Source: a virus (taxonomy: Duplodnaviria; Caudoviricetes). Taken from it: a stretch of 64,000 nt of DNA. The notes below the pieces were generated by a model that was not told the origin of the DNA, ran no database searches, and saw nothing but the letters and a program-made list of their open reading frames with translations. Shown here piece after piece: positions 30,925 to 55,739 of the stretch. The DNA lies in IMG/VR virus record IMGVR_UViG_3300025936_000002, positions 1 to 64,000 of that record; one strand, written 5' to 3'. Position numbers and translations under genes: made by a program. Numbering within the stretch: the stretch's first letter is position 1; each line of letters begins with the position of its first letter.

Positions 30925-30926
30925 GG

Positions 30927-31415: not shown

Positions 31416-31645
31416 GACGATGACCATACACGGCGATTCTACAATGATCAAACTAACTTGAGCGGAGTTCTCGGCCTGATCAGATCGCAGCGCACAATGT
31501 CCCGAAAACTTGGGGTCGGCCATCTTGTTCATCTGATCAGACGTGAACCCCAAGATCGCCTCGGAGTCGATCTGCCAGTTGCCTGGATCCAAGGTGGCGC
31601 CCTCACGGCGGTTGTAGCCGTACCATCCTACATGGCAAGCTCTCT

Positions 31646-32981: not shown

Positions 32982-34646
32982 TCAAAGCTGAGCGCTGATC
33001 ACAATGCCAGCACCACCATCGCCGCCGGCGGCTCCGTTGCTGCCCGTGCCGTTACCTAACCCACCTGATCCACCTAAACCACCAGCGGCTGTAGTTGTAG
33101 GTGCTGAGCCGCTCGCTCGTAGGGCAATAACGATTCCGCCGCCGCCGCCGCCGCCACCCCCACCACCGCCACCGTTTACAGCCGCCGCCGCGCCACCGTT
33201 ACCGCCTTTGCCCCCTTTGGCTTGCAGCACTCCGGTACCTACAAACGCTCTAGCACAAACCACCAACATCCCGCCGCTACCGCCACCACCGCCGCCACCG
33301 CCGTCCGTCGTAGCCAAGGCGCCGCCCGCCCCACCACCACCGCCGCTTCCAGCTGTCCATGGAGTACCGACGTCCGATCGACCACGGATCGCCGAAATCA
33401 GGTTATGGATGTCGCCATTCGCGGCGTCTAGTAGCGTCACGGTTCCACCGTTACCACCTGCACCGTTTGACGACAGGATGGCGTTGCTGCCACCACTGCC
33501 GCCGCCCCCACCTTGGCCTGCAGCCCCAGCACCACCAACGTTTGGTGGTGCTGTAGCAGCGGCTTGAGCTCCACCGGTTGTCGTGCCCGCAACAAAGCCG
33601 CGGGGTGCATCTGTGCTGACATCACCATCGGCAGGTAGCGCGACGTCCCCGTTGCCGCCCGCTGCTGAGCCGGCGAGAACCTCCGCAGAGATTGCAAGGC
33701 CGCCTGTACCGGCGCCGGATGCGCCGACCTTGCCGTCATTACCGTTGAACGAGACGACGCCATTGCACGTAAGCGTCCCGTAGACGAGGAGCCGCCACCC
33801 TTGCATCTTGAGCGTCACGCCTACATTGATCGTGCCATCATTCAAAAACAGATCGCGCGTCGCGGTGTAGGTGTTTGACGAAGGGACCATACCTAGGATC
33901 GTGGCTGCACCGTCGAACGTTTGGTTCCCGTCGCTGCCGTCGCCGAGCAATCCAAGCGCCCCCGAGATGGTAATCTGTGCAACGCCGCCGCCGGCGTCGG
34001 TCGCAGTTACTCCAGGGCCAACAAAGTTGTGTGTTGTATGGGGGGCTCCAGCAAGAGCTACACCTTCATCTTGGACTATGACGCCTGGAATCGTCACCGT
34101 TGCGACACCGCCACCTGCATTGGTGGCTGCAACGCCCCCGCCGACAAAGTTCAGGCTGGTATGAGGTGCGCCGGGAACAGCCACACCTTCATCCAAAAAG
34201 GTAACTCCGGGGATCGCAATGCTTGCAACACCACCACCTGCATTAGCGGCTGTAACACCAGCCCCTGTGAAGTTGTGTACCGTGTGCGGTGCGCCCGCGA
34301 GCGCGATCCCCTCATCTTGGACTACTACACCTGGGATTGTAATGTTGGCGGCGCCCGCCCCGCCATCAGTCGCCGCAACTCCACCACCGATGAAGTTGTG
34401 AATGGTGTGCGGAGCCCCCGCCAGGGCCGCCCCCTCATCTTCAACGACGATCCCAGGGATCGTAATCGTCGCCACTCCACCGCCCGCGTCGCTAGCAACA
34501 ACACCTCCGCCAACAAAGTTGAGTGTCGTCGATGGAGCGTCGCTGATCGGGGTACCTTCATCCTCGACATTGACGTCAGGTTCGCCACCGCCGCCTGGAG
34601 TTGCGCCGCCAGCACCACCAAATCCACAACAATCGCTGCCATTCAT
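32982..34646 (-). CDS. Gly-rich fibre/spike protein with five 41-aa repeats
   Basis: Five DEG...GAPHT.NF.G.GV.A...GGG.A.I.IPG repeats, then a Gly-rich GGxGGxGG domain. Confidence 0.75.
   Translation of the reverse strand: MNGSDCCGFGGAGGATPGGGGEPDVNVEDEGTPISDAPSTTLNFVGGGVVASDAGGGVATITIPGIVVEDEGAALAGAPHTIHNFIGGGVAATDGGAGAANITIPGVVVQDEGIALAGAPHTVHNFTGAGVTAANAGGGVASIAIPGVTFLDEGVAVPGAPHTSLNFVGGGVAATNAGGGVATVTIPGVIVQDEGVALAGAPHTTHNFVGPGVTATDAGGGVAQITISGALGLLGDGSDGNQTFDGAATILGMVPSSNTYTATRDLFLNDGTINVGVTLKMQGWRLLVYGTLTCNGVVSFNGNDGKVGASGAGTGGLAISAEVLAGSAAGGNGDVALPADGDVSTDAPRGFVAGTTTGGAQAAATAPPNVGGAGAAGQGGGGGSGGSNAILSSNGAGGNGGTVTLLDAANGDIHNLISAIRGRSDVGTPWTAGSGGGGGAGGALATTDGGGGGGGGSGGMLVVCARAFVGTGVLQAKGGKGGNGGAAAAVNGGGGGGGGGGGGGIVIALRASGSAPTTTAAGGLGGSGGLGNGTGSNGAAGGDGGAGIVISAQL
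33960..34574 (-). repeat. Five coding tandem repeats, 123-bp period
   Basis: Residues 25-229 of the fibre ORF. Confidence 0.85.
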
Positions 34647-39026: not shown

Positions 39027-39377
39027 TTAGGCCTCAACGGCTGCGCGGAGAATATCGTAGAGCTGCTGATCGCCTACAGCACCCTCATACTTGACCGGAT
39101 GTTCGTAGCGCCTAAACAAGACGGTGGTGGGCAGCCCAACTACTGCCAGCTCATCTGCCACCTTGTTGATCTGCGGATCTGCGCTCTGAGCATCCAAGAG
39201 CAGGATCGGAATTTCGTCCTCGGCGAAGGACTGTCCCTTATCACCGAAGACGAGGCGATGGCCGTAGCCTTGCCACCGCTTCACTTGATTCTCGAGCCGC
39301 GGTTTGAACTCTTCGCAGGCAGGACATCCCCGCATCGCAAAGACTACGATCACGGCTGGGCAATGCTCGAAGCTCAT
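39027..39377 (-). CDS. Thioredoxin-fold protein
   Basis: VVFAMRGCPACEEFKP (CxxC) and VGLPTTVLF (cis-Pro loop). Confidence 0.78.
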   Translation of the reverse strand: MSFEHCPAVIVVFAMRGCPACEEFKPRLENQVKRWQGYGHRLVFGDKGQSFAEDEIPILLLDAQSADPQINKVADELAVVGLPTTVLFRRYEHPVKYEGAVGDQQLYDILRAAVEA

Positions 39378-39661
39378 GGCATTTCTTCCCAAAGATGCTT
39401 CAGGCTGCCTAGAAGTTCATACAACTCTTTGGCACACGTGAGAGTCAATGCACGCCAATTGACATCAGCCCACGTTCTGCCGTTGGGTGACCACGCGCTA
39501 CCGTCGATATCTACAACACGATCAACGATTTGCGTATTGATCGGCGTACCCTCGAGGGATACACAAATACGAGGAGAATCGTTTGGGTCATCTCCTACAC
39601 TGACACCAACGCAGTCAGGGTTGGTGACATCGGCAATGCTGAATTCGTAGTAGTTGGCCAT
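39374..39661 (-). CDS. Hypothetical protein
   Basis: 95-aa ORF, ATG-coupled to the thioredoxin gene. Confidence 0.45.
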   Translation of the reverse strand: MANYYEFSIADVTNPDCVGVSVGDDPNDSPRICVSLEGTPINTQIVDRVVDIDGSAWSPNGRTWADVNWRALTLTCAKELYELLGSLKHLWEEMP

Positions 39662-40164: not shown

Positions 40165-41049
40165 TCAGAATTGCGGCAGATCGAGGATAGGGCGGCCTTG
40201 GGCGCGGCGTTGGATGGCCTTCAGGACCACGAGCGCTCCGACGCCAGCAACCACCGTGAAACCGGTCCACTGCAGCCATCCCCACGGCTTGTTTTGGCCA
40301 GGCAGCGCAAACTTGGGCTTGTCGACGATCTTGTTGCAGGTGGCAACGCACGCATCGGTTTGGCCACCTTGACCAGTGCAGGTTTTGAGGCATTCGAGAC
40401 GAGCGGCGGTGTAATTGGCGAACGCGTTGGCTTGCTCCGCGACTTGCTTGGAGTTGGATTCTTGGACCGCGCTCGTCTCGAGGTAGTGCATGATTGCGAC
40501 GATCGCTACGGATACAGCAATAGCGATACCGGCAATTGCGATCAGGACTATCGGCAGAACACCCAAGCCGTTCGTGGCGGTTTGGCTTCGCGCCGCTTGA
40601 ACCTGCAGGAGCGTCGAAAAGCTCGGCGCCCGTTCAGGATTCAACGCAAATTGATCTTGGGTGACGATCTGGATCTCGTTGGTCGACAGCCGCTGCGCCT
40701 TCTTGGTTGGCGTCATAGCCGCCCTGAGCGCCCCCGAGAGTGAGTTTCCACCCCCCTCGCAATTCATTTGCCAGGCAGTTTCGCCGGAGACGCCCTTCCA
40801 AGCGAACAGGGTCGGCGCTGTAGGTAGCTCGGGCACACCCTGCTCGCCGTTGGCCCGCAGCGTCGCCAGCATACCCGCCTGCGTGTTGTAAGTGGCCAAG
40901 GCCCACAGGTTGTAGGCCTTTACCTCGTCGCAGGTAGCCTCGCCGACTTGGAGCAGGCCAGCGATGTTGCCTGCCGCCCTCCGCATCGCCTGGTAGAGGC
41001 GCTCGATGTTGTCGGCGATCGTCTTGAGCCTGGTGGCGTCGTCGGCCAT
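40165..41049 (-). CDS. Two-TM membrane protein with Cys-bridged loop
   Basis: TNGLG precedes TM1, loop has CLKTC...CVATC, then TM2 and a basic tail. Confidence 0.75.
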   Translation of the reverse strand: MADDATRLKTIADNIERLYQAMRRAAGNIAGLLQVGEATCDEVKAYNLWALATYNTQAGMLATLRANGEQGVPELPTAPTLFAWKGVSGETAWQMNCEGGGNSLSGALRAAMTPTKKAQRLSTNEIQIVTQDQFALNPERAPSFSTLLQVQAARSQTATNGLGVLPIVLIAIAGIAIAVSVAIVAIMHYLETSAVQESNSKQVAEQANAFANYTAARLECLKTCTGQGGQTDACVATCNKIVDKPKFALPGQNKPWGWLQWTGFTVVAGVGALVVLKAIQRRAQGRPILDLPQF

Positions 41050-41285: not shown

Positions 41286-41594
41286 CTACAGCTTTGATCT
41301 GACAAGTGCTGCCACGCCAATCACGCCTATCCCCAAGAGGCTCCAAGTCCACCACGGCCAGCCACCAAAACCAAAACCACCTAGGCCGGATTCCACCCGT
41401 CGAAGGCGTGTATAGTAGTCGGGCACCTCGTAGAGATGATCGAGAGCGATCTCATACGCGATTTGCGGATCGCGCGTGTGTTCCATCTCGACGCGGATTC
41501 CCTCTTGGATCTGCCATGGATCGACATCGATCGGCCCCATGCCAGAGGATTTACCTCCAGGGATGCGTTCAGGTCGCGGCGGCCAAACCAACAT
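41286..41594 (-). CDS. DUF5661-like domain with C-terminal TM anchor
   Basis: GIRVEMEHT.DP.IAYEIALDHL.E.PDYYTRL, then SGLGG and a TM helix. Confidence 0.72.
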   Translation of the reverse strand: MLVWPPRPERIPGGKSSGMGPIDVDPWQIQEGIRVEMEHTRDPQIAYEIALDHLYEVPDYYTRLRRVESGLGGFGFGGWPWWTWSLLGIGVIGVAALVRSKL

Positions 41595-41596
41595 GT

Positions 41597-41962
41597 CTAG
41601 AGCTGGGTTGCCATCCCAACTTCGGCCGGAACGTTTTGGAAGACTTGGTAACTGATCTCGACACCTGAGCCATCGGCACCCCCAGAGGGGGTGGAGACGA
41701 AAAGGCTTTGGCCCTTGGCCAAGACGAAGACGTCGACTTGACCGGCGGGAAGCTTCCAGGTGTCGATCTGAGTCGGGAAGGTCTGCAGCGTCGAAGCGTC
41801 GAACGCGATCAAGACATATTGCCCATAGGCGTTGTTACGCACCCGGACAACGCAATCGTATCCGACGCGATCGACGATCACCGCAGGTGTAATTGGCGTC
41901 GGCGTCGCCGGTGGGCCGGATATGATCGGAACCTTGAGCGTATTTACGCGGCTAGCAAACAT
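41597..41962 (-). CDS. Small beta-rich virion protein (penton/spike candidate)
   Basis: 121 aa, all-beta pattern, immediately after the small capsid candidate. Confidence 0.5.
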   Translation of the reverse strand: MFASRVNTLKVPIISGPPATPTPITPAVIVDRVGYDCVVRVRNNAYGQYVLIAFDASTLQTFPTQIDTWKLPAGQVDVFVLAKGQSLFVSTPSGGADGSGVEISYQVFQNVPAEVGMATQL

Positions 41963-41981
41963 GACAGATCAATTCGCTAGG

Positions 41982-42479
41982 CTAGCGGTTGTTCGTCGCA
42001 GGAGCGATGACAATCAGGAAGCCTTCGAAGGTAATGGCCACCAAGATCGATGCCATATTCGTAACAGCAGGGAACGTGTCCGCTTGGACCGTGACTTGGA
42101 ACCCCGTCGAGCACTGCAGATACTCCGGATCGGCCCACTCCCAGGTCCGCTCCGACGAGCCTTTGGTGAGCGTCCCGATGCGGGTCGGGACACGCGTCAT
42201 GGCCTGCTCGCGGTTGAACACCTTGATCGAGACCTTGATCAAGCCAGCAAGTAGCTCCTGGTCGGGCTGCGTGGGGAGCATCACGCCTTGAGAGTCAAGC
42301 GCGTAGAGCCGCGGGATCATTCGATGGACCTCGAACGGCTTATCCGTCTGACAACTAAAGGTCGCCTGCGGGAAATCGGTCGCAACCTGTGCTGTAATGA
42401 GCAAAAGCTCGCCGAACAGCGAGTAGGGATCCCGATCGGTGATGACGCGGTCAGCGTAGGTATTTGGCAGACGACCCAT
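41982..42479 (-). CDS. Candidate small single-jelly-roll major capsid protein
   Basis: 165 aa, all-beta pattern (DPY...DKPFEV...ITFEG), AGGAG RBS, strong codon bias. Confidence 0.55.
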   Translation of the reverse strand: MGRLPNTYADRVITDRDPYSLFGELLLITAQVATDFPQATFSCQTDKPFEVHRMIPRLYALDSQGVMLPTQPDQELLAGLIKVSIKVFNREQAMTRVPTRIGTLTKGSSERTWEWADPEYLQCSTGFQVTVQADTFPAVTNMASILVAITFEGFLIVIAPATNNR

Positions 42480-42607
42480 GACGTTTGGACTCCTGCCGCA
42501 TTGATGCTAGCGGCCTATCTAACGTCCACGAATCGTTACATAAAGTCAAAAAAGACGCAGATTTACGGCGGGGAGATCATCCAAACCAATAAGCCAATCG
42601 AGACAAG

Positions 42608-42952
42608 GTGATGGCCAAGCCGAAGGAGGTGGTTTTCTTCGAGCGGCCCACCGTGACCGGTCGGCTTTACAGCGCCAAAGGGCCCTCAGGCTGGCTCGAG
42701 ACGTTCCCCCGTAAGCAGCTCGATCTGCAGCTGCAAGCCTTCCTCGGCTTGGCTCCGATCGATCAAGTCGTCGCCACCTTCATCACGCTGCGCGAGGTCG
42801 ACGATGACGAACCCACTACGTGGCAAACCGTCATCGGCTACCTGGGCCGAATGGTCGGCTTGTCGCCCTTAGAAGTCCCGCCAGAAATCGGGCTCGCCTT
42901 TTGGGGGCGAGTCGAATTGGAGTTAGCTACCAGACAAACACAAACAAATTGA
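42608..42952 (+). CDS. Hypothetical protein
   Basis: AAGG RBS; 114 aa; opposite strand to the capsid genes. Confidence 0.55.
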   Translation: MMAKPKEVVFFERPTVTGRLYSAKGPSGWLETFPRKQLDLQLQAFLGLAPIDQVVATFITLREVDDDEPTTWQTVIGYLGRMVGLSPLEVPPEIGLAFWGRVELELATRQTQTN

Positions 42953-42958
42953 AAAGCC

Positions 42959-43294
42959 ATGACGTTAGACGATCTTCCAAAGTTGTTCGCCACCGCACGA
43001 ATCGAAGCCTCGACGTCTGCGAGGTATGTTACTGGAGCGGCGCCCCATGGTGTATGCCGCTATTGTGGCGAAGCTCTACAGTTGTTCCAGTCACACGGGC
43101 TAGATGGACATGCCCGTTGCTGCGTAACCATTCAATTTCAACGGGCGGTATACATGCTTTATTGGAATACGCCTAGACTCAATAAAACTAGTATCGCCAA
43201 GGCTTGTGGAGTTAGCATTACTGCAGTTAGCAAATGGATTGACCGTGTAGTCCACGAACGCAAAGCGCCACCATCCGAAGATGGTGGCGCCTAG
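42959..43294 (+). CDS. Zn-finger + HTH regulator
   Basis: CRYC...H..C and KTSIAKACGVSITAVSKWI (HTH). Confidence 0.6.
   Translation: MTLDDLPKLFATARIEASTSARYVTGAAPHGVCRYCGEALQLFQSHGLDGHARCCVTIQFQRAVYMLYWNTPRLNKTSIAKACGVSITAVSKWIDRVVHERKAPPSEDGGA
43265..43290 (-). terminator. Intrinsic terminator hairpin downstream of the large capsid gene
   Basis: Perfect 11-bp stem gcgccaccatc with loop cUUCGg on the minus strand followed by TTT; a T-run also lies on the plus side. Confidence 0.75.
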
Positions 43295-43320
43295 TTCTGG
43301 TTTTTTGAAACCGAGAACTA

Positions 43321-44028
43321 CTAGGTCACGTTGCGCTTGATCAGGCCGTAGAGATAGCTCTTGATGTCGGCAAACGTCAAGTTATCGCCGCCATCCGAGG
43401 CGGGCTGGACGATGACCGGCGGCGCCTCGGGGTTGAACTCGAGCCGATACGCGATGTTCTCGCGCATCCAGATCGGCAGAACGAGCGCGTTGCGATCGCG
43501 GGGCGACGGAACGCCGTTCTGCGCGAGCTCGAAGTTGGCGTTGGTGCTGAACACGTTGAAGCCATGCCCCTGCGGGTAGTCCTGGATCACACCGGACGTG
43601 TACACCTTGTCGTTGTACTTGAACTCCAGGTAGGTCACGCGATCGACGTTGAACAGCGTCCGCAGCGTGGCCGGATCCGACAGTGCACCGTTGGTGTCCG
43701 GGAACTGCGGCTGCGTCGCGTTCTCGGCCGGGCGCTCGACGCGGACCATCTTGATCCCGATGCCGTAGATGAACATCTCCCACGACATCGGCAGACCGGT
43801 ATCACCGGCGCGAGCGAGGTTGCTATCCACGCGGGTGCTAGTACGTGTGCCGCCGTTGATCGGCTGCGCGCGACCGTTCACGAACGCCTGCAGACCGAAG
43901 GTCTGCCCGTTGGTGAACTGCACGGTGCTATACAGCTTGTCATCGATCCAGTCTTCGATCTGGATCGTCTGCCCGCTGGGCAGGGTGAACGTGGTGGTTC
44001 CTGGTGCTACTCCGACAGTGCCGGCCAT
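43321..44028 (-). CDS. Candidate large single-jelly-roll major capsid protein
   Basis: 235 aa, beta-rich, extreme GC3 bias, AAGGAG RBS and own terminator. Motifs T..DSN...G.LP..WE..IYGI, NGVP and YLYG...R.V are recalled from jelly-roll capsid proteins. Confidence 0.62.
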   Translation of the reverse strand: MAGTVGVAPGTTTFTLPSGQTIQIEDWIDDKLYSTVQFTNGQTFGLQAFVNGRAQPINGGTRTSTRVDSNLARAGDTGLPMSWEMFIYGIGIKMVRVERPAENATQPQFPDTNGALSDPATLRTLFNVDRVTYLEFKYNDKVYTSGVIQDYPQGHGFNVFSTNANFELAQNGVPSPRDRNALVLPIWMRENIAYRLEFNPEAPPVIVQPASDGGDNLTFADIKSYLYGLIKRNVT

Positions 44029-44096
44029 GGTGGCTTCTCCTTGCGATGTGATGAGTCATGAACGGCGCCGAACGAGCGCCAAGGAAGACGAGGTGA

Positions 44097-44717
44097 CTAG
44101 CGACCGGCCCCGAGGAGCGTGGCGCCGTAGGCGGCGGCGAGGTTGTGCGTCGGGGGACCGCCGGCGCCGAGGAGCTGGATCGATGCTGCCGACGGAGTGC
44201 CGAGCAGCGAGATGGGCGGAGCGCCGCCGCCGGGGCCCGCGAGGTGCGAACCCGCAACGCCCGGGATTGCACCCTGAGCATGCGAGACCGGCGAGAGCTC
44301 GGGGAGCCCGAGACCGTTGAGCGCCCGCGTGGCCGGATAGCCCAGCCCGTTGAGCGCCCGCGCCTGCGGGAACCCGAGACCCTTGACCTCAGGCGGCACG
44401 ACCTTGGCCGGCACCGTCGCTTCGCCCATCATCCACTTGCCGATCAGAGGCAGCCCCGCGACGAGGAGCGCCGTCACCGTGCTGGCAACGGCTGCGCCGC
44501 GGGTCGACTTCATCGAAGCCAGCACCGCAGATGTCGCGAGGCCGAGACCAAGGCCGATCGCTTCGGCATGCTGAGAGCCGCCGATGTGGCGTGCCGCAAG
44601 CGTACCGACGCCCGCTACGCCACCACCGATCAGAGCACCATACGTCGGGTTGAGACGCCCGCCCTTGAACATCCCGAGCCCCAGCAGATCGACGCCCGAG
44701 GAAATCAGCTTTGCCAT
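44097..44717 (-). CDS. Membrane-associated virion protein with four xxGLG motifs
   Basis: LLGLG, VKGLG, LNGLG and LNGLG; Gly/Ala-rich hydrophobic helices; directly upstream of the capsid gene. Confidence 0.75.
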   Translation of the reverse strand: MAKLISSGVDLLGLGMFKGGRLNPTYGALIGGGVAGVGTLAARHIGGSQHAEAIGLGLGLATSAVLASMKSTRGAAVASTVTALLVAGLPLIGKWMMGEATVPAKVVPPEVKGLGFPQARALNGLGYPATRALNGLGLPELSPVSHAQGAIPGVAGSHLAGPGGGAPPISLLGTPSAASIQLLGAGGPPTHNLAAAYGATLLGAGR

Positions 44718-44754
44718 TTGAAAATTCTCCTGATCTTGATCTTGGGAAACGGGA

Positions 44755-44922
44755 TCAGCAGCCGCCCTTGACGAAGGTCCAACCGCTGCGGTGTTTCTTC
44801 GAGCGACCGACGAAGCAGAGCTTCACGCCGCGTCCACGCTTGGTGCGAACGCACTTGCACTGCTTATGCTTGGACGCGCCGAGACCCCCACCCGGGCCGT
44901 CTAGACTCATGATCTTCGCCAT
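44755..44922 (-). CDS. Lys/Arg/Cys-rich small protein
   Basis: MAKIMSLDGPGGGLG followed by a basic segment with four Cys. Confidence 0.65.
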   Translation of the reverse strand: MAKIMSLDGPGGGLGASKHKQCKCVRTKRGRGVKLCFVGRSKKHRSGWTFVKGGC

Positions 44923-44938
44923 GTTGATTGACCCCTGA

Positions 44939-45442
44939 TCAGCGGTACCATTGGCGTAGAGGACGATCGATGAGGGCTTGTGCCTGCGCGGCCGGGAATG
45001 CCACGCCGTAGCGATCCTTTTGGATCGCCATGAGTCCCGCCATCTGCGCGGCCAGCTGCGGCGCGATTTGCTGCGCCATACCCGGAGCCGGGCCGGGCAT
45101 ACCCAACCCATTCATGGGTTGAGGTGGCATCCGCGGCACACCACTTGCCGTAGGTGGCATCGGATGTGGAGCAGGCATCCCAGCAGACATCAGCTTCTTG
45201 GCTCGACGCTCGGCGATCCAAGCTCGGAGCCGAGCGAGGAACCGCTCCACGGGGGCCGGCATCGCGCCGAGACCCTGCAGCATCATGCCGCGCTCGGCAC
45301 CCTGCGTGAACGCCATCGCCACCGCCTCGACGTCCGCCGGCGGCTGATAGCCCACCATCGGAGCCAGGACGCTGGTGCGATACACCCGATCGGGACGCAT
45401 GAAATGCATCCCGTCGCCGTGCCTGTTGGTAAAATCAGCCAT
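44939..45442 (-). CDS. Pro/Met-rich virion-associated protein
   Basis: LQGLG and MNGLG motifs; first gene of the capsid operon. Confidence 0.65.
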   Translation of the reverse strand: MADFTNRHGDGMHFMRPDRVYRTSVLAPMVGYQPPADVEAVAMAFTQGAERGMMLQGLGAMPAPVERFLARLRAWIAERRAKKLMSAGMPAPHPMPPTASGVPRMPPQPMNGLGMPGPAPGMAQQIAPQLAAQMAGLMAIQKDRYGVAFPAAQAQALIDRPLRQWYR

Positions 45443-45477
45443 GTATGCAACATCGAACGTTGACGGATTTTTGTCAA

Positions 45478-45493
45478 AAATTACGCGTAGTTA
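45478..45493 (-). promoter_or_regulatory. Candidate operator abutting a TTGACA -35 box of the capsid operon
   Basis: Minus strand reads TAACTACGCGTAATTT TTGACA N17 GATGTT, then 6 nt to the ATG at 45442. Confidence 0.55.
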
Positions 45494-45595
45494 TACAGAC
45501 TCAAGGCGAGGCTAGATCAAAGCATGCTATACAAGTGCTCAAACCAAAACGGATCGGGGGCGATTCGTAGTGGCTAATGCAGATCCAACGCAGCC

Positions 45596-46168
45596 ATGCT
45601 CATCGCCCACCATTCAACCGCCGCGGCCATCACGCCGCATGCCGCTGATCGCTCTTGGGTGGTGTTCTTTCAGACTGCCTTGCCCGCCAACGTGGTCTCA
45701 CCGATTCGGATCGTCGGAGTCAAAGGCGCCGATATCAATAAAGAACTTCGTCGGACTACCGAACTCAACGCCTACGATATCCAGATCGTAGGCTTGATCC
45801 AGACGCAGCCCGGCCTAGACGCCGACGAGCACGCCAAAGCAATCGCCGAGCAATACGCGGGGGCACACCTGCATCACGGTTGGTACCTGCCAACGGGTGA
45901 TCTGATCGCCTTCATCCAACATCACGCCAAACGAGAGCTACAGGCGCTGCTCAACCAAGTCCATCCAGGAGCAATCCACGAGCACGTTGTCGACCTCCAC
46001 GAGATGGCCAAGGTGCTTGGCTGCGCCGAGGTCACGATCCGCCGGATGATCGCCCGTAACGAGATTCCGTTCATGCGCGCCGGCCGCGAATACCGCTTTC
46101 AACCCGTCGAGGTGATCGCCGCCCTTCAACGCCAAGGCGTCCTCAAGGTTGGCAGATCGGCAGGTTAA
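45596..46168 (+). CDS. T5orf172/GIY-YIG-like domain fused to excisionase-type HTH
   Basis: VVFFQT...IRIVG...HLHHGWY (degenerate), then LHEMAKVLGCAEVTIRRMIARNEIPFMRAGREYRF. Confidence 0.6.
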   Translation: MLIAHHSTAAAITPHAADRSWVVFFQTALPANVVSPIRIVGVKGADINKELRRTTELNAYDIQIVGLIQTQPGLDADEHAKAIAEQYAGAHLHHGWYLPTGDLIAFIQHHAKRELQALLNQVHPGAIHEHVVDLHEMAKVLGCAEVTIRRMIARNEIPFMRAGREYRFQPVEVIAALQRQGVLKVGRSAG

Positions 46169-46178
46169 GGTTCGACGT

Positions 46179-46694
46179 ATGACCCATCTAATCGACGGCG
46201 AGTTTCAGAGTGATAAGTATCCCACCTGCCCACGCGGCAAGGTGCCCTTGAGCTGCAAGGATCCGATGGCACAGGATCTACTTTGGGAGTACGCGAAGCG
46301 TCGGGCGGTTGTAGATGCAGAGTTTTCTAACGACCTCGAGACTGCGCTGATCACAGCTGGGTTCAAAGTTGTAGTTTGCGAGTGGTGCGGCTCTCGGCAT
46401 CGTACAATCTTCGACGACAACACGATCCAAGGCATCGACTGTGCCGCAAGCGTCGACTTCGACGGCGAGCAGTGGTTGGTACATGGCCATTATGGAAGTG
46501 CCGTCGATACGCTCGTCTTCCGGTTTGTTGCCAACGCGCCCTCAACTCCAACCAAAACCGTATGTGACGCCTGCATCAAGGCGCGGTTCGACGGCGGAGA
46601 TCTCGTAGAGATTGATGATCCAACCGAAGCGGACGATCCGGTCGAAGCCGCGCTTGGATTTGAGCTGGCAACCGAGCCCTTCGATAAAAGCTAA
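46179..46694 (+). CDS. Hypothetical phage protein
   Basis: HLIDGEFQSDKYP...LSCKDPMAQDLLWEYA, then a CEWC...CDAC region. Confidence 0.55.
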   Translation: MTHLIDGEFQSDKYPTCPRGKVPLSCKDPMAQDLLWEYAKRRAVVDAEFSNDLETALITAGFKVVVCEWCGSRHRTIFDDNTIQGIDCAASVDFDGEQWLVHGHYGSAVDTLVFRFVANAPSTPTKTVCDACIKARFDGGDLVEIDDPTEADDPVEAALGFELATEPFDKS

Positions 46695-46725
46695 ATGTCA
46701 GATCGACGAGCTAAGCTCTGCTTCG

Positions 46726-47253
46726 ATGAAGATCGAAGTTGAAATCGCAGATATCAGCCGTCAAGAAATCGTCGAGGCAGTCGCCCGCCGCGTGTTAGGC
46801 CAAGACCGACGAGACGACGAAGGGCCGCAGCAATCGTCAATCGAGATACTGTTTCGTCGATTACTAGAGTCTCAAATCAAGGGGCTCGCCGAGAGCCTCG
46901 TGAGAGAGAAATTCGACGAGGTGATCGCCAGTCGAATCGATTATGCAGTCGATACTGTCCTCTCCGAGGGTTGGGCGTGTACCGACGGGTACGGCAACGT
47001 CCTCCTCCTCGGACAGAAAGTCGACCTCAAGGGTAGGATCGCACAGCAGCTAGAGAAAATGTCCGGTGAAGGCTATAGCAAGCCACGCCTGAAGCACATC
47101 GATCGACTCGTAATCGAGACCCTTGAAAAGACACTCCAAATGGAGTTCAAGCCGGCGATCGACGCTGCGCGCAAAGCACTCCGCGACCAACTCGATACAG
47201 CCGTCATGACCAAGTTCGCCGAGGCCGTCAAGAGCGCGCTCGGAATTCGATAA
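46726..47253 (+). CDS. Hypothetical helical protein
   Basis: Acidic/basic helical 175-aa ORF containing TDGYG. Confidence 0.55.
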   Translation: MKIEVEIADISRQEIVEAVARRVLGQDRRDDEGPQQSSIEILFRRLLESQIKGLAESLVREKFDEVIASRIDYAVDTVLSEGWACTDGYGNVLLLGQKVDLKGRIAQQLEKMSGEGYSKPRLKHIDRLVIETLEKTLQMEFKPAIDAARKALRDQLDTAVMTKFAEAVKSALGIR

Positions 47254-47266
47254 AGGACACCAACCA

Positions 47267-47497
47267 ATGCCCACGTTACCGCGAGATTTGACCGACGAGG
47301 AACGCCGCAAAGCCATCCAAAGGACCCAAGTCATCGTCGGGGAGCATCTTCGAGCGTTCTCAAAAATACTTGCCGTTGAACTTGGTCTACGAACGACTGG
47401 ACCGATAGGTACAGATCCAGTGGTGAGGTTTGCGGCCGAAATGTACGCAGACGTTTGGCTTGATGAAGCCACCAAGATCGCCGGTGGCTGGGAGTGA
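47267..47497 (+). CDS. Hypothetical protein
   Basis: AAGGA RBS; coupled to the next ORF. Confidence 0.5.
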   Translation: MPTLPRDLTDEERRKAIQRTQVIVGEHLRAFSKILAVELGLRTTGPIGTDPVVRFAAEMYADVWLDEATKIAGGWE

Positions 47498-47790
47498 TCA
47501 AATGCCCCAAGTGCCTCGCCGATGCTGAGGCTATGGAGACCCGCGACGTCGGCAAGGGGCCCCTGACCTATGTCCGTCGTCGTCGTCGTTGTACGCAATG
47601 CGGAAAGCGCATCACGACCTACGAAGTGATCGTTGATGAAGGCATCACGGGCGATGTCATGGTCGTCGGGCGCAAAGAGATGATGGACGTTCTGAGGGTA
47701 GCGGTAGCGGCGTTCTCGTCGCGCATAGACGATGACGGTGTATCAGCCAAGCTCCTTGAGCAACTCCTTGGGGCGGACGTTGATCCATGA
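47494..47790 (+). CDS. NrdR-like zinc-ribbon protein lacking the ATP-cone
   Basis: KCPKC...ETR...VRRRRRCTQCGKRITTYE matches the NrdR N-terminal signature. Confidence 0.72.
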   Translation: MIKCPKCLADAEAMETRDVGKGPLTYVRRRRRCTQCGKRITTYEVIVDEGITGDVMVVGRKEMMDVLRVAVAAFSSRIDDDGVSAKLLEQLLGADVDP

Positions 47791-48029
47791 TTAACGGAGA
47801 TCTACATCAATCGATCTTGGCTATCCTACAGGCTGACAAAGCAACATGGCTCAGACAGCTGTGCGAAGCGCTTGGGATCAAGCGGCAACGACAGGGCTAC
47901 TCCAGGGCGAGCTATCGCCGACGAGGGGAGGTTGAAGAAAGCCTGCAGGAGCTCGTGAAACGAGGTCTCGTGATCGGTGGTAGACGGAGTGGATGGCGAC
48001 TCGCCGCACCAAACCCTAAAGACCCGTGA
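47787..48029 (+). CDS. Winged-helix protein
   Basis: VEESLQELVKRGLVIGGRRSGWRL. Confidence 0.5.
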   Translation: MINGDLHQSILAILQADKATWLRQLCEALGIKRQRQGYSRASYRRRGEVEESLQELVKRGLVIGGRRSGWRLAAPNPKDP

Positions 48030-48041
48030 TAGGCTCTCGGC

Positions 48042-48395
48042 ATGGCCCAGCTTGCCGCCCGCAGCTACTACGACGAGACCGGAACCTACGAGGGCGGATC
48101 TGGCCGAACGGTCGATACAAGCCCAATGCCGCCGACACCACTACCGCGGCCCGTCACGAGCCCCAACCCAGTGCCGTCAGACGGCCTACCGCCACCCATC
48201 AATCCAAGCGACGCACCGATCGTGACGCCATCTATCCCGCCTGCACCCTACCCGACGAACACAGGCATCGTCCCGCCGCATCTACAGATGACTTGGATCC
48301 AAGCCCATCCGATGGTGATCCCGGTTGGGATCGGCTTGGCTGGGCTCCTCTTGGGCCTCACCATCGGCATCGCCGTTGGCAGCCGCAAGCGCTAG
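48042..48395 (+). CDS. Pro-rich tail-anchored membrane protein
   Basis: P/T-rich linker, C-terminal TM and SRKR. Confidence 0.7.
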   Translation: MAQLAARSYYDETGTYEGGSGRTVDTSPMPPTPLPRPVTSPNPVPSDGLPPPINPSDAPIVTPSIPPAPYPTNTGIVPPHLQMTWIQAHPMVIPVGIGLAGLLLGLTIGIAVGSRKR

Positions 48396-48784
48396 CGAAG
48401 TAGCGCGCCGGCGCCGCCGAGGACGGCCAATCCGAGCAGCGCGACACCACCGATGACCAGCCACTTGCGGTTGGTCCAGGCCCACGAGTCGAAGCCGAAG
48501 CCGAGCCCGTGAGGCGGATCTATCCACCGCGCCTTGGTGATGCCTAGACCAGTGAGGCTCGTGCAGGGTAGACCGGGGCAACACGGCGCTTGGCCGTTGG
48601 TGCACGCCAACGGATCACCTTGGATGCGTTGTGGAACGTAGCTGAGCGGCTGGATCGTCCGCTGCCCGTTGGTCCAGTCGCCTGGAATCTTGCAATGCGG
48701 ATTGAGCTTGATGTTGATTGCAGGATCCTCAGAAAATTGCCAATCAGGGATCAACCCGAGTCCATGTGGTTGCGCAAACATCAT
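48392..48784 (-). CDS. Tail-anchored membrane protein with three GLG motifs
   Basis: PHGLG, LTGLG and PHGLG; Cys cluster; C-terminal TM. Confidence 0.7.
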   Translation of the reverse strand: MMFAQPHGLGLIPDWQFSEDPAINIKLNPHCKIPGDWTNGQRTIQPLSYVPQRIQGDPLACTNGQAPCCPGLPCTSLTGLGITKARWIDPPHGLGFGFDSWAWTNRKWLVIGGVALLGLAVLGGAGALLR

Positions 48785-48791
48785 AGTTGTT

Positions 48792-49103
48792 TTATCTCCT
48801 CGTTCGACGCAGCGGTCTAATCTGCCAGCCAGACAAACGACGATTAGCCGCCGCGAAGTCGGCAATGTCGGAGCGCGCAAACGAAATTGCAGCATGCGCC
48901 GCATCGCGCATAGCGCGCGGATCGTCAACAGCAAGACGACGGCCATGGACGCTACGAGATCCTGCCGCCGGCGGCTTCACCGAAACCGTTTCACAGCGTT
49001 CGCCTTTGACGGTTGGGCACATCTTGACTCGATATTGATCTGTTCGATCGTTGAAGCTAACTTCGAGCTTCAAGCTACCACTCTTGAATCGCTGCTTTGC
49101 CAT
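48792..49103 (-). CDS. Basic small protein
   Basis: MAKQRFK start overlaps the upstream stop; ends RRTRR. Confidence 0.6.
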   Translation of the reverse strand: MAKQRFKSGSLKLEVSFNDRTDQYRVKMCPTVKGERCETVSVKPPAAGSRSVHGRRLAVDDPRAMRDAAHAAISFARSDIADFAAANRRLSGWQIRPLRRTRR

Positions 49104-49543
49104 TACGCAACCCTCCGCTTGCCGAAGCCTTGGGCGACGCCGATGACCGGCGTGATCACCGGGAAGGTCAAACCCATTAAGGCCCACCAGAGGGCCCAAC
49201 CGATGGACTGATTGCGCCTGTAGCCGTGGTAGGCGCTCGCCGCCATGCTCGCAGTCGACAGGATCCCCCAAACCAGCCCCCAATTCACCTTGGAGCTCGC
49301 ATCGAGCCACGTGAGCGCCCCCGCGACAGCCTTGCTATCCACCCCACGAGCGATCAGCGCTCGGGCTGCATCGGTACGGGGCCCGCCGGAGGCGTAGAGC
49401 TTTAGGAACTCAGCCACCTGCGTAGACGACGGATTCGGCGACTTGAGGAGGAATCCATCGATCTCGTTGTCGAGGCCGAGCAGCTGGATCGGCGGACCTA
49501 GCAGTTGGACGGGGGCTGGCATGGTTGCTTCCGAGCCTACCAC
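49103..49543 (-). CDS. Two-TM membrane protein
   Basis: LLGLD motif; TM-AYHGYRRNQSIGWALWW-TM; basic tail. Confidence 0.7.
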   Translation of the reverse strand: MVGSEATMPAPVQLLGPPIQLLGLDNEIDGFLLKSPNPSSTQVAEFLKLYASGGPRTDAARALIARGVDSKAVAGALTWLDASSKVNWGLVWGILSTASMAASAYHGYRRNQSIGWALWWALMGLTFPVITPVIGVAQGFGKRRVA

Positions 49544-50003
49544 CGTTTGGCCTCAGGTCGGTAACCGTCATGCTACCTCGGTAGCCTCGACGTCCGATGA
49601 ATGGATGCTGCATGGCGAACTCTGACAGCACAACGCACGACTTGACTTGCTACTGGTACTGGCCGTGCGGTTGTCGCAAAGAGCGCGATTCAAACGAACA
49701 CGCCGTAGCCCATACGCATACGTACCGAGAACCGCCGCAGAATGATCGGCCGATCGATCCATCTCAAGATAATCGGCCGATCGATCTGCCCCCAGTCTAC
49801 AGGCTGCTTAACTTCAAACCATATCGGAGACACAGATGACCCTCGAAGAAGCCAAGCCAAGTTACAGCGGCGACTCATGGTTACTCAGACGCCACCGCTC
49901 GATCCGGCTCTCGTCGATACGATCGCTGCCCTTTTAGTCGACGTCGACGACGAGGCCTACACCAAAGGCCATACAGACGGCGTCGCCGATTGCTCGTGAC
50001 CGA

Positions 50004-50759
50004 CTACGCGTCGAAGTCGATGAACTTGGCGTAAGTCGGCTCGCGGCCGAAGTGATCGTTGCCGGGGAGAGTCGTGTCCAGGGCGACGAATTTGTCTCCG
50101 CCACCCTTCGGTAGAAGGGCCCCAGGGAAGATATGCTCCCAGTCCTCGGCGCCCTTGGTCTGGACTACACGAAGCCGCGGTGTAATGCCGTTTTCCGCGA
50201 GCATCGTTGCCGCCAAAATGTTGTGATCGTCGCAATCGCCGCCACCGAACTCCAACGTTCGATGGGCAGCTTGGAAGAGGTCAACCCCCTCTACTTTCCC
50301 ATCGTGCCAACGGATTGGTGCAATATCGCCTGTATAGCGAACGCGAGCCTTGATGAAGTCGTAGATTGCTTTGGCTTCACACATCCCGTCTCGCTCTGGG
50401 CAATGGGCGGTTGCCTGCAACGAGATCTTTCGCATCCGTCCATCTTTGATGGATTCACGGACGCGCTCTTGGATCGAAGCTACGCGGACCTCGATCGGCA
50501 TGTTGTCCATCTCACGAAGTGTTGTAGTATACCCACCGGCTGTACGCTGATCGACGATCGGCGCCTCTTGAGCCTTACCTAGGAACCGCCGACCTTTTCG
50601 CCCCCATCCAAGGCCGGAGATCGGGGTTGGAGCCCCCTGACGGCTGTAGGCAATCCCCCCGAGGATGAGGAGACCCAGCCCCGTAAGACCTGAGATCCAA
50701 GCGAGCGTGGTTGGCTTCTTCACGGTGCCTTGGATGCTAGCACGGCTTTGGCAAACCAT
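50004..50759 (-). CDS. Transglutaminase-like cysteine protease with N-terminal TM (probable GTG start 50723)
   Basis: Triad GDCDD (Cys), WEHIF (His), ALDTT (Asp); VRYTGD upstream; TM then ISGLG. Confidence 0.8.
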   Translation of the reverse strand: MVCQSRASIQGTVKKPTTLAWISGLTGLGLLILGGIAYSRQGAPTPISGLGWGRKGRRFLGKAQEAPIVDQRTAGGYTTTLREMDNMPIEVRVASIQERVRESIKDGRMRKISLQATAHCPERDGMCEAKAIYDFIKARVRYTGDIAPIRWHDGKVEGVDLFQAAHRTLEFGGGDCDDHNILAATMLAENGITPRLRVVQTKGAEDWEHIFPGALLPKGGGDKFVALDTTLPGNDHFGREPTYAKFIDFDA

Positions 50760-51062
50760 CGAGTTAGGCTGCTTTCAATGGTCCGCATTCCATCTACATG
50801 CATCAATAACGTCGTAACTAAGACCGCAGCAGTGCGTGACGGCCTGCGCCGTTTCGGCGATTTTCCTGGGATGGATGAGCTGTATCGACGTGGCGCATTC
50901 CGCCACATCGAAGACGTGGCCTACGCACGTATTGCCTTAGAGAAATTCAAGTCGACTGTCGATAAAATAGCTCGAGAACTAGATGAGTCATACGTAACTG
51001 ATATTCCATTCGGCCATCGCTGCGATCGCATCTATCCGCCCACCTGAACATCGGAACCAGAA

Positions 51063-51395
51063 ATGCCCTTCCTCCAACCGCCACACATCCCAGCCTACGT
51101 GATTGATCTAGTTGTGGTGCGCATCTACGTAGGCACAAGGGATGCTGTTGAGGTCTTACCGAAGGAAGGATTGGAGGCTGCGCAACGACTCCAAGCTGAG
51201 GCTTGGTGCCGAGCAATCGTAAATCTACTTGCTGCAGAACTCTCGTTGCGGATTGCGTCTGCGACTAGCGTCGTTCGCGTTTTGTCTGGAAGCGGCGAAG
51301 GGTCGGAGCTACGGTTGTTGCCGGCGGCTCAGACTGGTTTAGTCGCCTTGATGGACGAGGAGCCTTGGCGCCGTCTACCAAGACGCGACGGATGA
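51063..51395 (+). CDS. Hypothetical protein
   Basis: 110-aa ORF; no recognisable motif. Confidence 0.4.
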   Translation: MPFLQPPHIPAYVIDLVVVRIYVGTRDAVEVLPKEGLEAAQRLQAEAWCRAIVNLLAAELSLRIASATSVVRVLSGSGEGSELRLLPAAQTGLVALMDEEPWRRLPRRDG

Positions 51396-51681
51396 CATCC
51401 GATCGAGCTAGGCTTTGGCTATGTCCTTAGGCCTATCGTTTCCGCCGTTGTATCTCTGCCCTGACTGCGAAGGTAACGGAGTGATCATGTACGCAGGCAA
51501 GGTCGTCCTCAAGGTCTGCTCGGTCTGCGAGGATCGACGCCGTACCGCCCGAACCGGCTTTGATCGAGCAACGACTGGCGCCGATCGACACCGATCACTC
51601 AAGGCTCTAATCGTAGAAAGGTGGCTTCGTGGCCTCGGCAAGACCTAAACCGAGGGCCTACCCGTGATAGGCTAGCCACCT

Positions 51682-53178
51682 ATGCACGTGTTTCGAGCGC
51701 GAGGTCTGCACGGTCAGGGGCTATGCGGCCTCGGCGACTATCCAGCTAGCAACGGATTCTGTTGGGTCCCCGCTAGCGGGGACATCCCGGGCCACTGGGA
51801 GCGGCCATGGGCTGGTAGCAACCCAACGACGCCGTGCAAGTATCCGCCACCTGATAGCGGTGGAGCGATCGTACGTGATCATACGAGCGGCGGGGGCGGA
51901 GGTGGCGTAACGGTGACCGAGAGCCCCAGCATCTTGGACGTCGCCAAAGGCACCATTGTCAACTTGGCGATGGTGAACCGCCTCTTCAACGCGACGCTCA
52001 AGCAATACACAGAGCGTGAGGCGCTAGCGGTCAAGGCGCTCATGGTTACGGGGGAGGGGTTGCCCGCATGCCCACCCGAGAGCCAACAAACCATCGACGG
52101 CAAACCAACTTGTTACGGGTTCACGCCGCGTACAGCAGCTGCAGCACTGCCTGGAGGGTTTGAAGTCCTCGGCGTCCCGTTCAACGTGTCTGAAATCGGC
52201 ATTACCAAGAAGCCGCAATTCGAGCGCGTATTCACGCCAAACAATGAACAGCGGATCATGATCGAATCGATGATCATTCGTCGATCTGATGATCTACTAC
52301 TTGCTGCCCTCGGAGATGCGTTGGATCGTGCAGTCGCTGCGAGCAGTGGGGGCGTCATGACCCCCAATGATCGAGATCGAGCGATTGCCAAGCTGTCGGC
52401 GGCGCAGGCATTCGCGTTGCTGCCCGATTGGCAAACGGTGATCCCAGGAATGGCACTGCGTTCGGATCCGCCGCGAAGCTATGAGCTAGATGTCGAAGGT
52501 GGATTCAGTAAATGGCACGATCGGGGCGGATTTCTGATCTCACGCGCTATCGCTACCGGTCAATACTTCATCAACGTCCCTCAACCGGATCAAGCGCGCC
52601 AGGCGGGAACCATCTCGCCACGGGTGTGCACGTCAATTCTGTGCGCCTGCAGTCCAACCGGTACACCATCGTGCATTGCCGATTGGATCCCATCATCAGA
52701 TGGGGGGCGCGTTCGACTTTGGGTCCATGTTGCAATCGATCCTAACGGATCGATGAAGATGACTCTGAAGCATGATGATCCTAGTTGGCTAGAGAAGGCT
52801 GGTGGAAAAATCCATGCCTTCGTGGATGTCTTGAACAAAGCAATATGCACAGCGGCCCCAGCCATCAAAACGCAAACAACTTCGGTCATCGCCGACAAGT
52901 ACGTCGACGCCAACGGCAAGGCGTGTACTAAAGGCGCGACGGGCTGCAACCTTGTTCAGGCCTCAGCCGCGGCAACGGGGGGCGTTGGCCTCCTGAATTT
53001 TGCGGTAGGAACGTACTGCAGCGTCATTGCGAGCAACCAACAAAACCCTAAGGAGCCGGTGCCCCCAACCCCGACTCCGGCCCCCATCACCACAACTCCA
53101 CCGTGGTTGCATTATCTGCCCTGGGTGATTGGCGGCCTGGCACTCGGTGCCGGAGCGGTAGTTATCACGCGTCGCTAG
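51682..53178 (+). CDS. Large Cys-containing tail-anchored virion protein
   Basis: N-terminal GLHGQGLCGLG, many Cys pairs, P/T linker, C-terminal TM and RR. Confidence 0.75.
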   Translation: MHVFRARGLHGQGLCGLGDYPASNGFCWVPASGDIPGHWERPWAGSNPTTPCKYPPPDSGGAIVRDHTSGGGGGGVTVTESPSILDVAKGTIVNLAMVNRLFNATLKQYTEREALAVKALMVTGEGLPACPPESQQTIDGKPTCYGFTPRTAAAALPGGFEVLGVPFNVSEIGITKKPQFERVFTPNNEQRIMIESMIIRRSDDLLLAALGDALDRAVAASSGGVMTPNDRDRAIAKLSAAQAFALLPDWQTVIPGMALRSDPPRSYELDVEGGFSKWHDRGGFLISRAIATGQYFINVPQPDQARQAGTISPRVCTSILCACSPTGTPSCIADWIPSSDGGRVRLWVHVAIDPNGSMKMTLKHDDPSWLEKAGGKIHAFVDVLNKAICTAAPAIKTQTTSVIADKYVDANGKACTKGATGCNLVQASAAATGGVGLLNFAVGTYCSVIASNQQNPKEPVPPTPTPAPITTTPPWLHYLPWVIGGLALGAGAVVITRR

Positions 53179-53405
53179 TTGAGGATCGAAGCTCGATCGG
53201 GGAGGGGATACATCGCCCGCAGGTACACGGGCCGAGCGCCACCCCCACAACGGGCAACAACATCTCGTGGCGCTTATGGATGATCTGATCTGTATCCATT
53301 TGTTGCAGAATTTCGAGCGATCGCTGAAGTAGGTGGTTGACGGTCATTGCCCTGCGATCGTAGCAGGCTGCCCTGTCGCGCGAAAATCGCGGCTGAGGGG
53401 AACCC

Positions 53406-53891
53406 GTGGTAGCGTCAGGACCAAGTCCTATGATCCATCGCGGCGGAACCCTCCTAGGAACCAACGAGATTGAGAACCTCCAGCGAGCCTTGAGCAATCT
53501 CGCCGTGGCCACACAGCGCCCGGCGATCAACGCCAAGGTTACCGGCGTCATGGATGATCAGACCATGACGGCCTTGAGCGCTGGGCTTGGCCTGCTTACC
53601 GAGCAGTTACCGAAGTGGCTCTACCTTGGCCTGCAGGGTGTTCTGATCCTAGGTGTTACGAGCTCGCAGGCGAAAAAGTACGCCGGCGAGTACGCAGCGC
53701 AGCTCACGCTCGCGGCGAACACCGCCGCGGTCAAGTTCAAAACGACACCTCCAGTAATCGCGCCTGCATCTCAACCTCAAATCGTCGGATTCTTTGCGCC
53801 GGGTTGGTACAAGACGCCGATCGGATTGGGCTTGATTGCTCTGGCGTTATTCGTCGGATACAAGATCTTCATCGCCCCCAAGGCAGCCTAA
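53406..53891 (+). CDS. Membrane protein with PG-binding-like N-terminus
   Basis: IENLQRAL...VTGVMDDQTMTAL resembles PG_binding_1; C-terminal TM. Confidence 0.55.
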   Translation: MVASGPSPMIHRGGTLLGTNEIENLQRALSNLAVATQRPAINAKVTGVMDDQTMTALSAGLGLLTEQLPKWLYLGLQGVLILGVTSSQAKKYAGEYAAQLTLAANTAAVKFKTTPPVIAPASQPQIVGFFAPGWYKTPIGLGLIALALFVGYKIFIAPKAA

Positions 53892-53900
53892 GGAACAAAC

Positions 53901-54569: not shown

Positions 54570-54580
54570 AGTGGCCCTCA

Positions 54581-55476: not shown

Positions 55477-55486
55477 CCTCAAGGGC

Positions 55487-55729: not shown

Positions 55730-55739
55730 ACTTGGAGCC

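Follow-up and report, generated by a model that had tools for sequence, protein, structure and literature searches.

Known membrane-containing phages without tails have genomes of about 10–44 kb, and to our knowledge almost all large bacterial viruses described so far are tailed. We analyzed a 64,000-nt window of viral DNA, positions 1 to 64,000 of the IMG/VR record IMGVR_UViG_3300025936_000002 (85,269 bp in total, hereafter G000), in which three minus-strand genes encoding proteins of 235, 165 and 121 amino acids (aa) are located between positions 41597 and 44028. Our favored interpretation, which we consider likely, is that they form a conserved three-gene capsid module of an uncultured, tailless, probably membrane-containing double-stranded DNA (dsDNA) virus of bacteria. 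The first-pass annotation of the window had proposed a large tailless virus with jelly-roll capsid proteins, and this reading was supported by the predicted folds, by the size of the circularly mapping genome (85 kb) and of its relatives (up to 138 kb), and by searches of the genome in which no HK97 capsid, portal or terminase gene was found.

The nearest structural counterpart is Sulfolobus polyhedral virus 1 (SPV1; Portogloboviridae), in whose capsid VP4 occupies the hexamers and VP10 the pentamers (PDB 6OJ0). The shell of this archaeal virus is built of two single jelly-roll proteins over an internal membrane, and the circular dsDNA genome of approximately 20 kb has no identifiable packaging ATPase and no replication genes of its own (PMC8459092). 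Models were predicted by AlphaFold2 with family alignments and compared with 48,161 PDB chains in an unbiased search by VIA-align; SPV1 was the best neighbor of the 235-aa model (Z 8.2 on a second look), with a sequence identity of about 10% and no profile match, and matched the 165-aa model at Z 6.9–7.0. Whereas SPV1 is a 20-kb virus of an archaeal hyperthermophile and has no polymerase of its own, the present genome comprises 85 kb, has bacterial-type Shine–Dalgarno (SD) sites and, unlike SPV1, encodes a replication set of PolA-UDG, primase-helicase, SNF2 helicase and exonuclease.

In capsids of the sphaerolipovirus type, the barrels stand vertically, and dimers of the major capsid protein (MCP) build pseudo-hexameric capsomers. 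The likeness of the locus to SH1, HHIV-2, HCIV-1 and P23-77 (Helvetiavirae, now realm Singelaviria) is at the fold level only and consists of two single jelly-roll proteins, one small and one large (165 and 235 aa here vs 173 aa in VP16 and 291 aa in VP17 of P23-77), with fold matches of Sphaerolipoviridae and Matshushitaviridae to the two models at Z 5.2–7.3. In both cases small membrane proteins are encoded nearby, and the P23-77 genome is circular too. A pair of single-barrel capsid proteins, together with membrane proteins and an ATPase, makes up the conserved core of the sphaerolipoviruses (PMC5332951). Their gene order is ATPase, small, large, whereas here it is large, small and mini; the FtsK/HerA ATPase that is a core gene of that group was not found in G000, and the genome is three to five times the size of theirs. 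Comparison with P23-77 VP16 and VP17 by hhalign gave probabilities below 1%, the 235- and 165-aa profiles had no match at E ≤ 10 among all PDB sequences, and tblastn was negative. Given the lack of any sequence or profile link or FtsK/HerA ATPase in these searches, the different gene order, and SPV1 as the clearest neighbor of the 235-aa protein, the original description of the virus as a relative of SH1 and P23-77 is not supported.

The bacterial phage SSIP-1, which is tailless and contains a membrane, has a large circular genome of 44 kb, a T = 49 capsid and two MCP types (PMC6356626, PMC6260650); the present genome is two to three times larger. In a comparison with the SSIP-1 genome (JN880423; database of 275 open reading frames [ORFs]), a 251-aa transglutaminase-like protein of G000 matched the virion protein gp34 by BLASTP at E 1e-7, with both proteins matching Transglut_core, and no other gene common to SSIP-1 and G000 was found among the 275 ORFs. 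The 235-aa profile ranked the SSIP-1 structural protein gp45 first of the 275, but at E 0.35; the capsid-size proteins gp45 and gp46 gave E 0.35–2.4 and hhalign probabilities of about 2%, which is not significant, and the structural ATPase gp40 had no counterpart in G000. Kinship with SSIP-1 is thus at most possible, as judged from these sequence comparisons. The double jelly-roll (DJR) phages (Tectiviridae PRD1, Corticoviridae PM2 and FLiP) also have tailless membrane-containing particles. Single barrels of DJR capsid proteins (PRD1 P3, FLiP, PBCV-1, Faustovirus and ASFV) matched the 165-aa model at Z 6.3–7.7, and the PRD1 penton P31 (126 aa) resembles the 121-aa protein in size, with no profile similarity by hhalign. 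No Pfam DJR family matched any gene of G000, the A32/P9-type ATPase of these phages was not found in it, and the genome is six to nine times larger than theirs.

Conservation and predicted folds of the three-gene module

The 235-aa protein (43321–44028, minus strand) is the candidate MCP with a predicted single jelly-roll fold. The 165-aa protein (41982–42479, minus strand) is, from its predicted fold and synteny, the second jelly-roll capsid candidate, either a second MCP or a vertex protein, and the 121-aa protein (41597–41962, minus strand) is a small jelly-roll/cupin-like candidate penton or cement protein according to its ESM Atlas model and synteny. Just upstream of the 235-aa gene, a 206-aa Gly/Ala-rich membrane protein with a transmembrane (TM)-like segment and four [LV]xGLG motifs is encoded (44097–44717, minus strand), and the spacer between the 235- and 165-aa genes is variable and here holds two opposite-strand ORFs of 114 and 111 aa (42608–43294, plus strand). 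An AAGGAG SD site is located 7–8 nt ahead of the 235-aa start, and CAGGAG sites precede the 165- and 206-aa starts; the 121-aa gene starts 19 nt past the 165-aa stop with no obvious SD site. When codon usage was scored with a model trained on G000 itself, the 235-aa gene reached 0.32 per residue, among the top three of 128 genes. The three ORFs are real and conserved, and the initial observation was confirmed.

No Pfam or PHROG family matched the 235-, 165-, 121- or 206-aa protein. The 235-aa protein had at least 429 homologues of near-constant length, with 68–86% identity among the best 120; they formed 88 clusters at 50% identity and were carried on contigs as long as about 180 kb. Homologues of the 165-aa protein numbered 276. 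For the 121-aa protein a word-index search gave only two, and its family was rebuilt from synteny; the resulting family aligns. Of all proteins encoded by the genome, the 235-aa protein is the best conserved: it is 72% and 46% identical to its counterparts in the relatives G002 (137,914 bp) and G004 (123,913 bp), respectively, whereas the values are 58% and 36% for PolA and only 50% and 31% for the primase-helicase. In a gene-order comparison of 20 related loci, the order 235 to 165 was kept in all 20, with an intergenic gap of 60 nt to 3 kb (60–170 nt in L009, L020, L021 and L023; 0.5–3 kb in the others). An ORF of 103–123 aa follows 13–50 nt behind the 165-aa gene in 18 of these loci and a longer ORF in the other two, and the 206-aa membrane protein is kept in 16, as well as in G002 and G004. 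No paralogy among the 235-, 165- and 121-aa families was detectable by hhalign.

The AlphaFold2 model of the 165-aa protein had a predicted local distance difference test score (pLDDT) of 91.4, and that of the 235-aa protein was beta-rich, with a pLDDT of 66.5 and a confident beta core. Virus structural proteins accounted for 32 of the top 50 VIA-align entries for the 235-aa model and 27 of the top 50 for the 165-aa model. In the first search, the 235-aa model matched SPV1 (Z 7.7), HCIV-1 (6.0), P23-77 VP17 (5.8) and HHIV-2 (5.7), and satellite panicum mosaic virus, nodaviruses and PBCV-1 were likewise among the matches; a second look placed SPV1 (6oj0_A; Z 8.2, 136 aa aligned, root-mean-square deviation 3.3 Å) about 2 Z over the next entry. 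The 165-aa model matched EhV-201 (Z 7.7), PBCV-1 (7.6), HHIV-2 (7.3), Faustovirus and PRD1 P3 (7.0), SPV1, HCIV-1 (6.8) and FLiP, and on a second look sphaerolipovirus, DJR and SPV1 chains were tied at Z of about 7 with the jelly-roll enzyme PHM. With Z values in this range, homology to any one capsid family is not established.

Foldseek matched the 165-aa model to bromovirus coat proteins at E 5e-4 and, in BFVD, returned a generic jelly-roll likeness only (TM-score 0.3–0.5); a shape search of the ESM Atlas gave only unnamed viral clusters, which are probably its own family. For the 121-aa protein, Ena and cupin jelly rolls were the named folds nearest to its ESM Atlas model (pTM 0.69), at a TM-score of 0.5–0.56. 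Modeling thus agreed with the initial assignment, in that all three proteins are predicted to be jelly-roll-type beta-sandwiches; judged from these models, support for this fold class is good in the case of the 165-aa protein and fairly good in that of the 235-aa protein, whereas for the 121-aa protein the class is plausible.

Searches for tailed-phage and packaging genes in the complete genome

The 85,269-bp record carries a 127-bp terminal repeat, and G002 and G004 have terminal repeats as well. The cut points lie at differing places in the common gene order (G000 begins upstream of the Sak4-like gene, G002 between PolA and the methyltransferase). The maps must therefore be circular and the genomes complete, and the repeat was rejected as marking true genome ends. 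Four relatives of 102–138 kb were examined alongside G000, three of the five genomes having terminal repeats. Of the 128 genes called in G000, 125 were compared with Pfam and PHROGs.

None of these 125 genes matched a terminase, portal, HK97 capsid, tail, tape-measure, baseplate or sheath family, so that the earlier statement of no terminase, portal or tail genes in the window also holds for the whole genome. Six-frame searches of G000 and the four relatives with Terminase_6N, TerL_ATPase, Terminase_6C, Phage_portal and Phage_capsid were negative, with control genomes positive each time; this exclusion of HK97 capsid, portal and terminase is at the sequence and profile level, at which a small HK97-fold protein could escape.

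Every ORF of at least 400 aa was assigned, and therefore no terminase- or portal-sized gene remains. The largest (1085 aa; 4269–7526, plus strand) is a UDG-PolA fusion (Pfam DNA_pol_A 6.9e-39, UDG 2.1e-14), the virus's own DNA polymerase, as the first-pass annotation had stated. Those of 550 and 502 aa are helicases, that of 530 aa is a primase-helicase, that of 491 aa has a lipase domain, and that of 498 aa is Cys-rich with a C-terminal anchor. The 668-aa protein (61913–63919, minus strand) is coiled-coil and Pro-rich, with an acidic tail, high codon bias and a conserved C-terminal part; a role as scaffold, tape-measure-like or core protein would be a guess. The 554-aa protein (32982–34646, minus strand) is Gly-rich and, as read from its sequence, a fiber- or spike-like candidate, with five repeats of about 35 aa (IPG..V.DEG.AL.GAPHT.HNF.G.GV) followed by poly-Gly tracts; it adjoins a glycosyltransferase and had no Pfam or PHROG match. 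The 449-aa protein (genome positions 73036–74385, L002:10036-11385, minus strand) is a pectate-lyase-like beta-helix, with Atlas features of 0.86–0.88 to Pect-lyase_RHGA_epim clusters. It is probably a depolymerase spike and varies among relatives. Picornavirus VP3 matches (E of about 0.1) raised it as a DJR capsid candidate, which was rejected because it is beta-helix-like and not a core gene.

The first-pass annotation had suggested a search for an FtsK/HerA-type packaging ATPase as opposed to a terminase, and neither was detected. The Pox_A32 and FtsK_SpoIIIE models gave nothing above the cut-off in the five genomes, and no homologue of the P23-77 ATPase was found in G000. Apart from one tiny doubtful ORF, the Walker A motif is confined to four proteins, namely a Sak4-like protein, the primase-helicase and two helicases. 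The 300-aa AAA_24 ATPase (187–1089, plus strand) was rejected as a packaging enzyme, since it is a Sak4-like RecA-type ATPase (PHROG 124, Sak4-like ssDNA annealing protein, 2.9e-23) located in the replication module of G000, G002 and G004.

Proposed assembly model and rival explanations

The many membrane proteins reported initially were borne out: about 30 genes encode TM-like segments, mostly single C-terminal anchors, and the majority are located at 35–66 kb around the capsid-candidate module. One of them, an 80-aa protein (55487–55729, plus strand), opens with MTVGVAPGTTT and closes in a TM helix, and its N-terminal TVGVAPGTTT copies the N-terminal arm of the 235-aa protein, which opens with MAGTVGVAPGTTT. 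The local alignment of the two scored 57, compared with a maximum of 48 among 200 shuffles. A weaker, internal copy of the arm peptide is present in a 97-aa anchored ORF at 53901–54194.

The transglutaminase-like (papain-fold) protein noted above (251 aa; 50004–50759, minus strand; Pfam Transglut_core) is membrane-anchored and a core gene product, with 59% and 39% identity to its counterparts in G002 and G004, respectively. Fourteen copies of the motif [LIMV]xGLG were counted in the proteome, whereas shuffling within proteins gave 4.2 ± 2.0 and, in 300 shuffles, never more than 11. It is concentrated in the structural-module membrane proteins at window positions 44097–59414, chiefly those at 44097–44717, 44939–45442 and 50004–50759, and is absent from all three jelly-roll proteins. 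The 251-aa protein, which is encoded nearby, could be a maturation protease.

Apart from the module, the genes common to G000, G002 and G004 are replication genes, small membrane proteins, the thioredoxin-like and transglutaminase-like proteins and the C-terminal part of the 668-aa protein, and none of them is a better shell candidate than the 235-aa protein. In the proposed particle, the 235-aa protein would form the bulk capsomers, and the 165-aa protein would be the second shell protein, placed either in pseudo-hexamers, as in SH1 and P23-77, or at or near the vertices, as is SPV1 VP10. The 121-aa protein would serve as penton or cement. The shell would enclose an internal membrane, presumably rich in the tail-anchored proteins encoded around the module, to which the 80-aa protein with its copy of the 235-aa arm may tether it. 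As a packaging ATPase is undetectable, enclosure of the genome would take place while the particle assembles, as in SPV1, or else depend on an unrecognized motor. A more specific scenario, which we put forward tentatively and would not expect to hold in full, is a bacterial and far larger counterpart of the SPV1 build in a widespread lineage of 85–138 kb at the family level or above: a single jelly-roll shell over a protein-rich membrane would be closed without a packaging motor, membrane-anchored proteins would be tied to the shell through the shared N-terminal arm peptide, and the membrane-bound transglutaminase-like protease would cut at [LIMV]xGLG for maturation.

Several observations weigh against the capsid-module interpretation. 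The virus is known here from its sequence and predicted folds. No sequence or profile link was found from the module proteins to any known capsid protein, and the profiles of all three families gave no matches, or matches at chance level only, against all PDB sequences. All VIA-align Z values were at most 8.2, middling on the tool's own scale. In the 235-aa model, two long loops and the N-terminus were poorly modeled though highly conserved in sequence, and Foldseek returned no PDB match for it at E ≤ 0.001, though its list consisted almost entirely of capsid proteins. Capsid proteins matching the 165-aa model were tied with PHM, nucleoplasmin and GOLD domains, and the structural matches also included jelly-roll cement or decoration proteins of tailed phages (KHP40, Pam1 and HFTV1). 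The packaging ATPase that is the hallmark of the SH1, P23-77 and PRD1 groups is missing at this search sensitivity. G000 encodes a tailspike-like beta-helix (449 aa) and a fiber-like protein (554 aa), and G002 and G004 have PHROG matches named 'virion structural protein' and 'tail spike' that are absent from G000.

One alternative keeps the tailless virus but makes the three jelly-roll proteins minor components (penton, cement or spike base), with another, unrecognized protein as the true MCP. PRD1-type viruses do use single jelly rolls for their pentons, and cement proteins can be of this kind as well (matches 4ind, 7dou and 7eel); moreover, many ORFs of 230–300 aa have no structural model. 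We judge it unlikely, since no other core gene of G000, G002 and G004 has a suitable size without another assignment, the 235-aa gene leads in conservation and ranks near the top in codon bias, no gene matched a DJR or other capsid Pfam family, and the 449-aa beta-rich protein is a beta-helix. That the genome belongs to a highly divergent tailed phage, whose HK97 capsid, portal and terminase escape the profiles and whose jelly rolls act in decoration, cement or receptor binding, appears quite improbable. Decoration and tail-fiber jelly rolls of tailed phages among the structural matches (7dou, 7eel, 8qpg, 9rkv and 9f4b), the tailspike-like beta-helix and the automatic Uroviricota labels of related Atlas clusters would fit such a phage, but no ORF of at least 400 aa is left for a terminase large subunit or portal, and the Walker A proteins are only the Sak4-like protein, two helicases and the primase-helicase. 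The negative six-frame searches for five terminase, portal and capsid families, with positive controls, and the lack of tape-measure, baseplate and sheath matches in the scans also speak against it.

Very improbable, in our estimate, is a non-viral origin as a large plasmid-like or integrative element, with the jelly rolls forming, for example, Ena-like fibers or surface adhesins. Neither conjugation nor relaxase families were matched in the scans, the genome resembles those of phages in gene density and content, IMG/VR classes the records as viral, and the structural matches are mostly capsid proteins, even though Ena fibers are among those of the 121- and 235-aa proteins. The tyrosine recombinase, the ParB-like protein and the replication genes of its own would suit such an element, as would the binning of some relatives into metagenome-assembled genomes (MAGs); yet matches in prokaryote genomes were confined to short MAG contigs and never lay on chromosomes, and a cultured phage, SSIP-1, has the virion-type transglutaminase-like protein in common with G000.

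With the capsid-module interpretation retained, the family looks like a widespread and undescribed one, with hundreds of metagenome members and genomes of 85–138 kb that encode jelly-roll shell candidates and replication machinery of their own but no recognizable packaging motor. If the interpretation is true, the size limit of the tailless jelly-roll build would rise two- to three-fold, and a sizeable share of 'unclassified phage' sequence would not belong to Duplodnaviria. The family would then offer a bacterial system for how a jelly-roll shell and a membrane enclose about 100 kb of DNA, and the 235-aa protein would be a marker now missing from virus classifiers.

Other genes and distribution of the family

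Pfam and PHROG matches in G000 comprised PolA-UDG, two superfamily 2 helicases, a D5-like primase-helicase, an exonuclease, a topoisomerase-like protein and the Sak4-like ATPase. Other matches were to a D12 methyltransferase, a tyrosine recombinase, a ParB-like protein, a GDSL-lipase-domain protein, a glycosyltransferase, the thioredoxin-like and transglutaminase-like proteins, and sigma and helix-turn-helix regulators. No tRNA genes were found in the window, and a promoter and terminator scan of it gave results at chance level only.

Searching IMG/VR for related loci with single sequences gave none, whereas an alignment-based scan gave 14 loci. By tblastn, the 235- and 165-aa proteins had no match in 50,697 phage records, which leaves the family without a known cultured relative, and searches of the literature did not turn up a description of it. 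G002 and G004 (L026-L039) carry homologues of the T4 lysis-inhibition proteins RIIA and RIIB, a thymidylate synthase and HNH endonucleases, which G000 does not. The distant branch is very GC-rich (68% in G004), and its 235-aa protein is about 46–49% identical. A member of this branch, L008 (78,656 bp), is a contig of a Tessaracoccus MAG from a long-read assembly, placed in an actinobacterial bin, which hints at an actinobacterial host for the branch. The MAG bins of the remaining members conflict (Polyangiales, Alphaproteobacteria and Actinomycetes).

Directly downstream of the 121-aa jelly-roll gene, a 102-aa protein with DUF5661 and a C-terminal TM segment is encoded (41286–41594, minus strand); among relatives, the DUF5661 gene is found elsewhere in the module. 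Farther downstream in the same minus-strand run is a 294-aa protein with three TM-like segments (40165–41049, minus strand), kept in 9 of the 20 loci and in G004. The thioredoxin-like protein (39027–39392, minus strand), also of 121 aa, is a module core gene product kept in 16 of the 20 loci; the call comes from Thioredoxin_2 and Thioredoxin Pfam matches that are not tied to one gene, and the L004 counterpart has a weak Thioredoxin_2 match. Two overlapping adjacent ORFs of 162 and 240 aa (30481–31649, minus strand) match one single region of G002 and G004, and would be either tandem paralogues or one frameshift-split gene.

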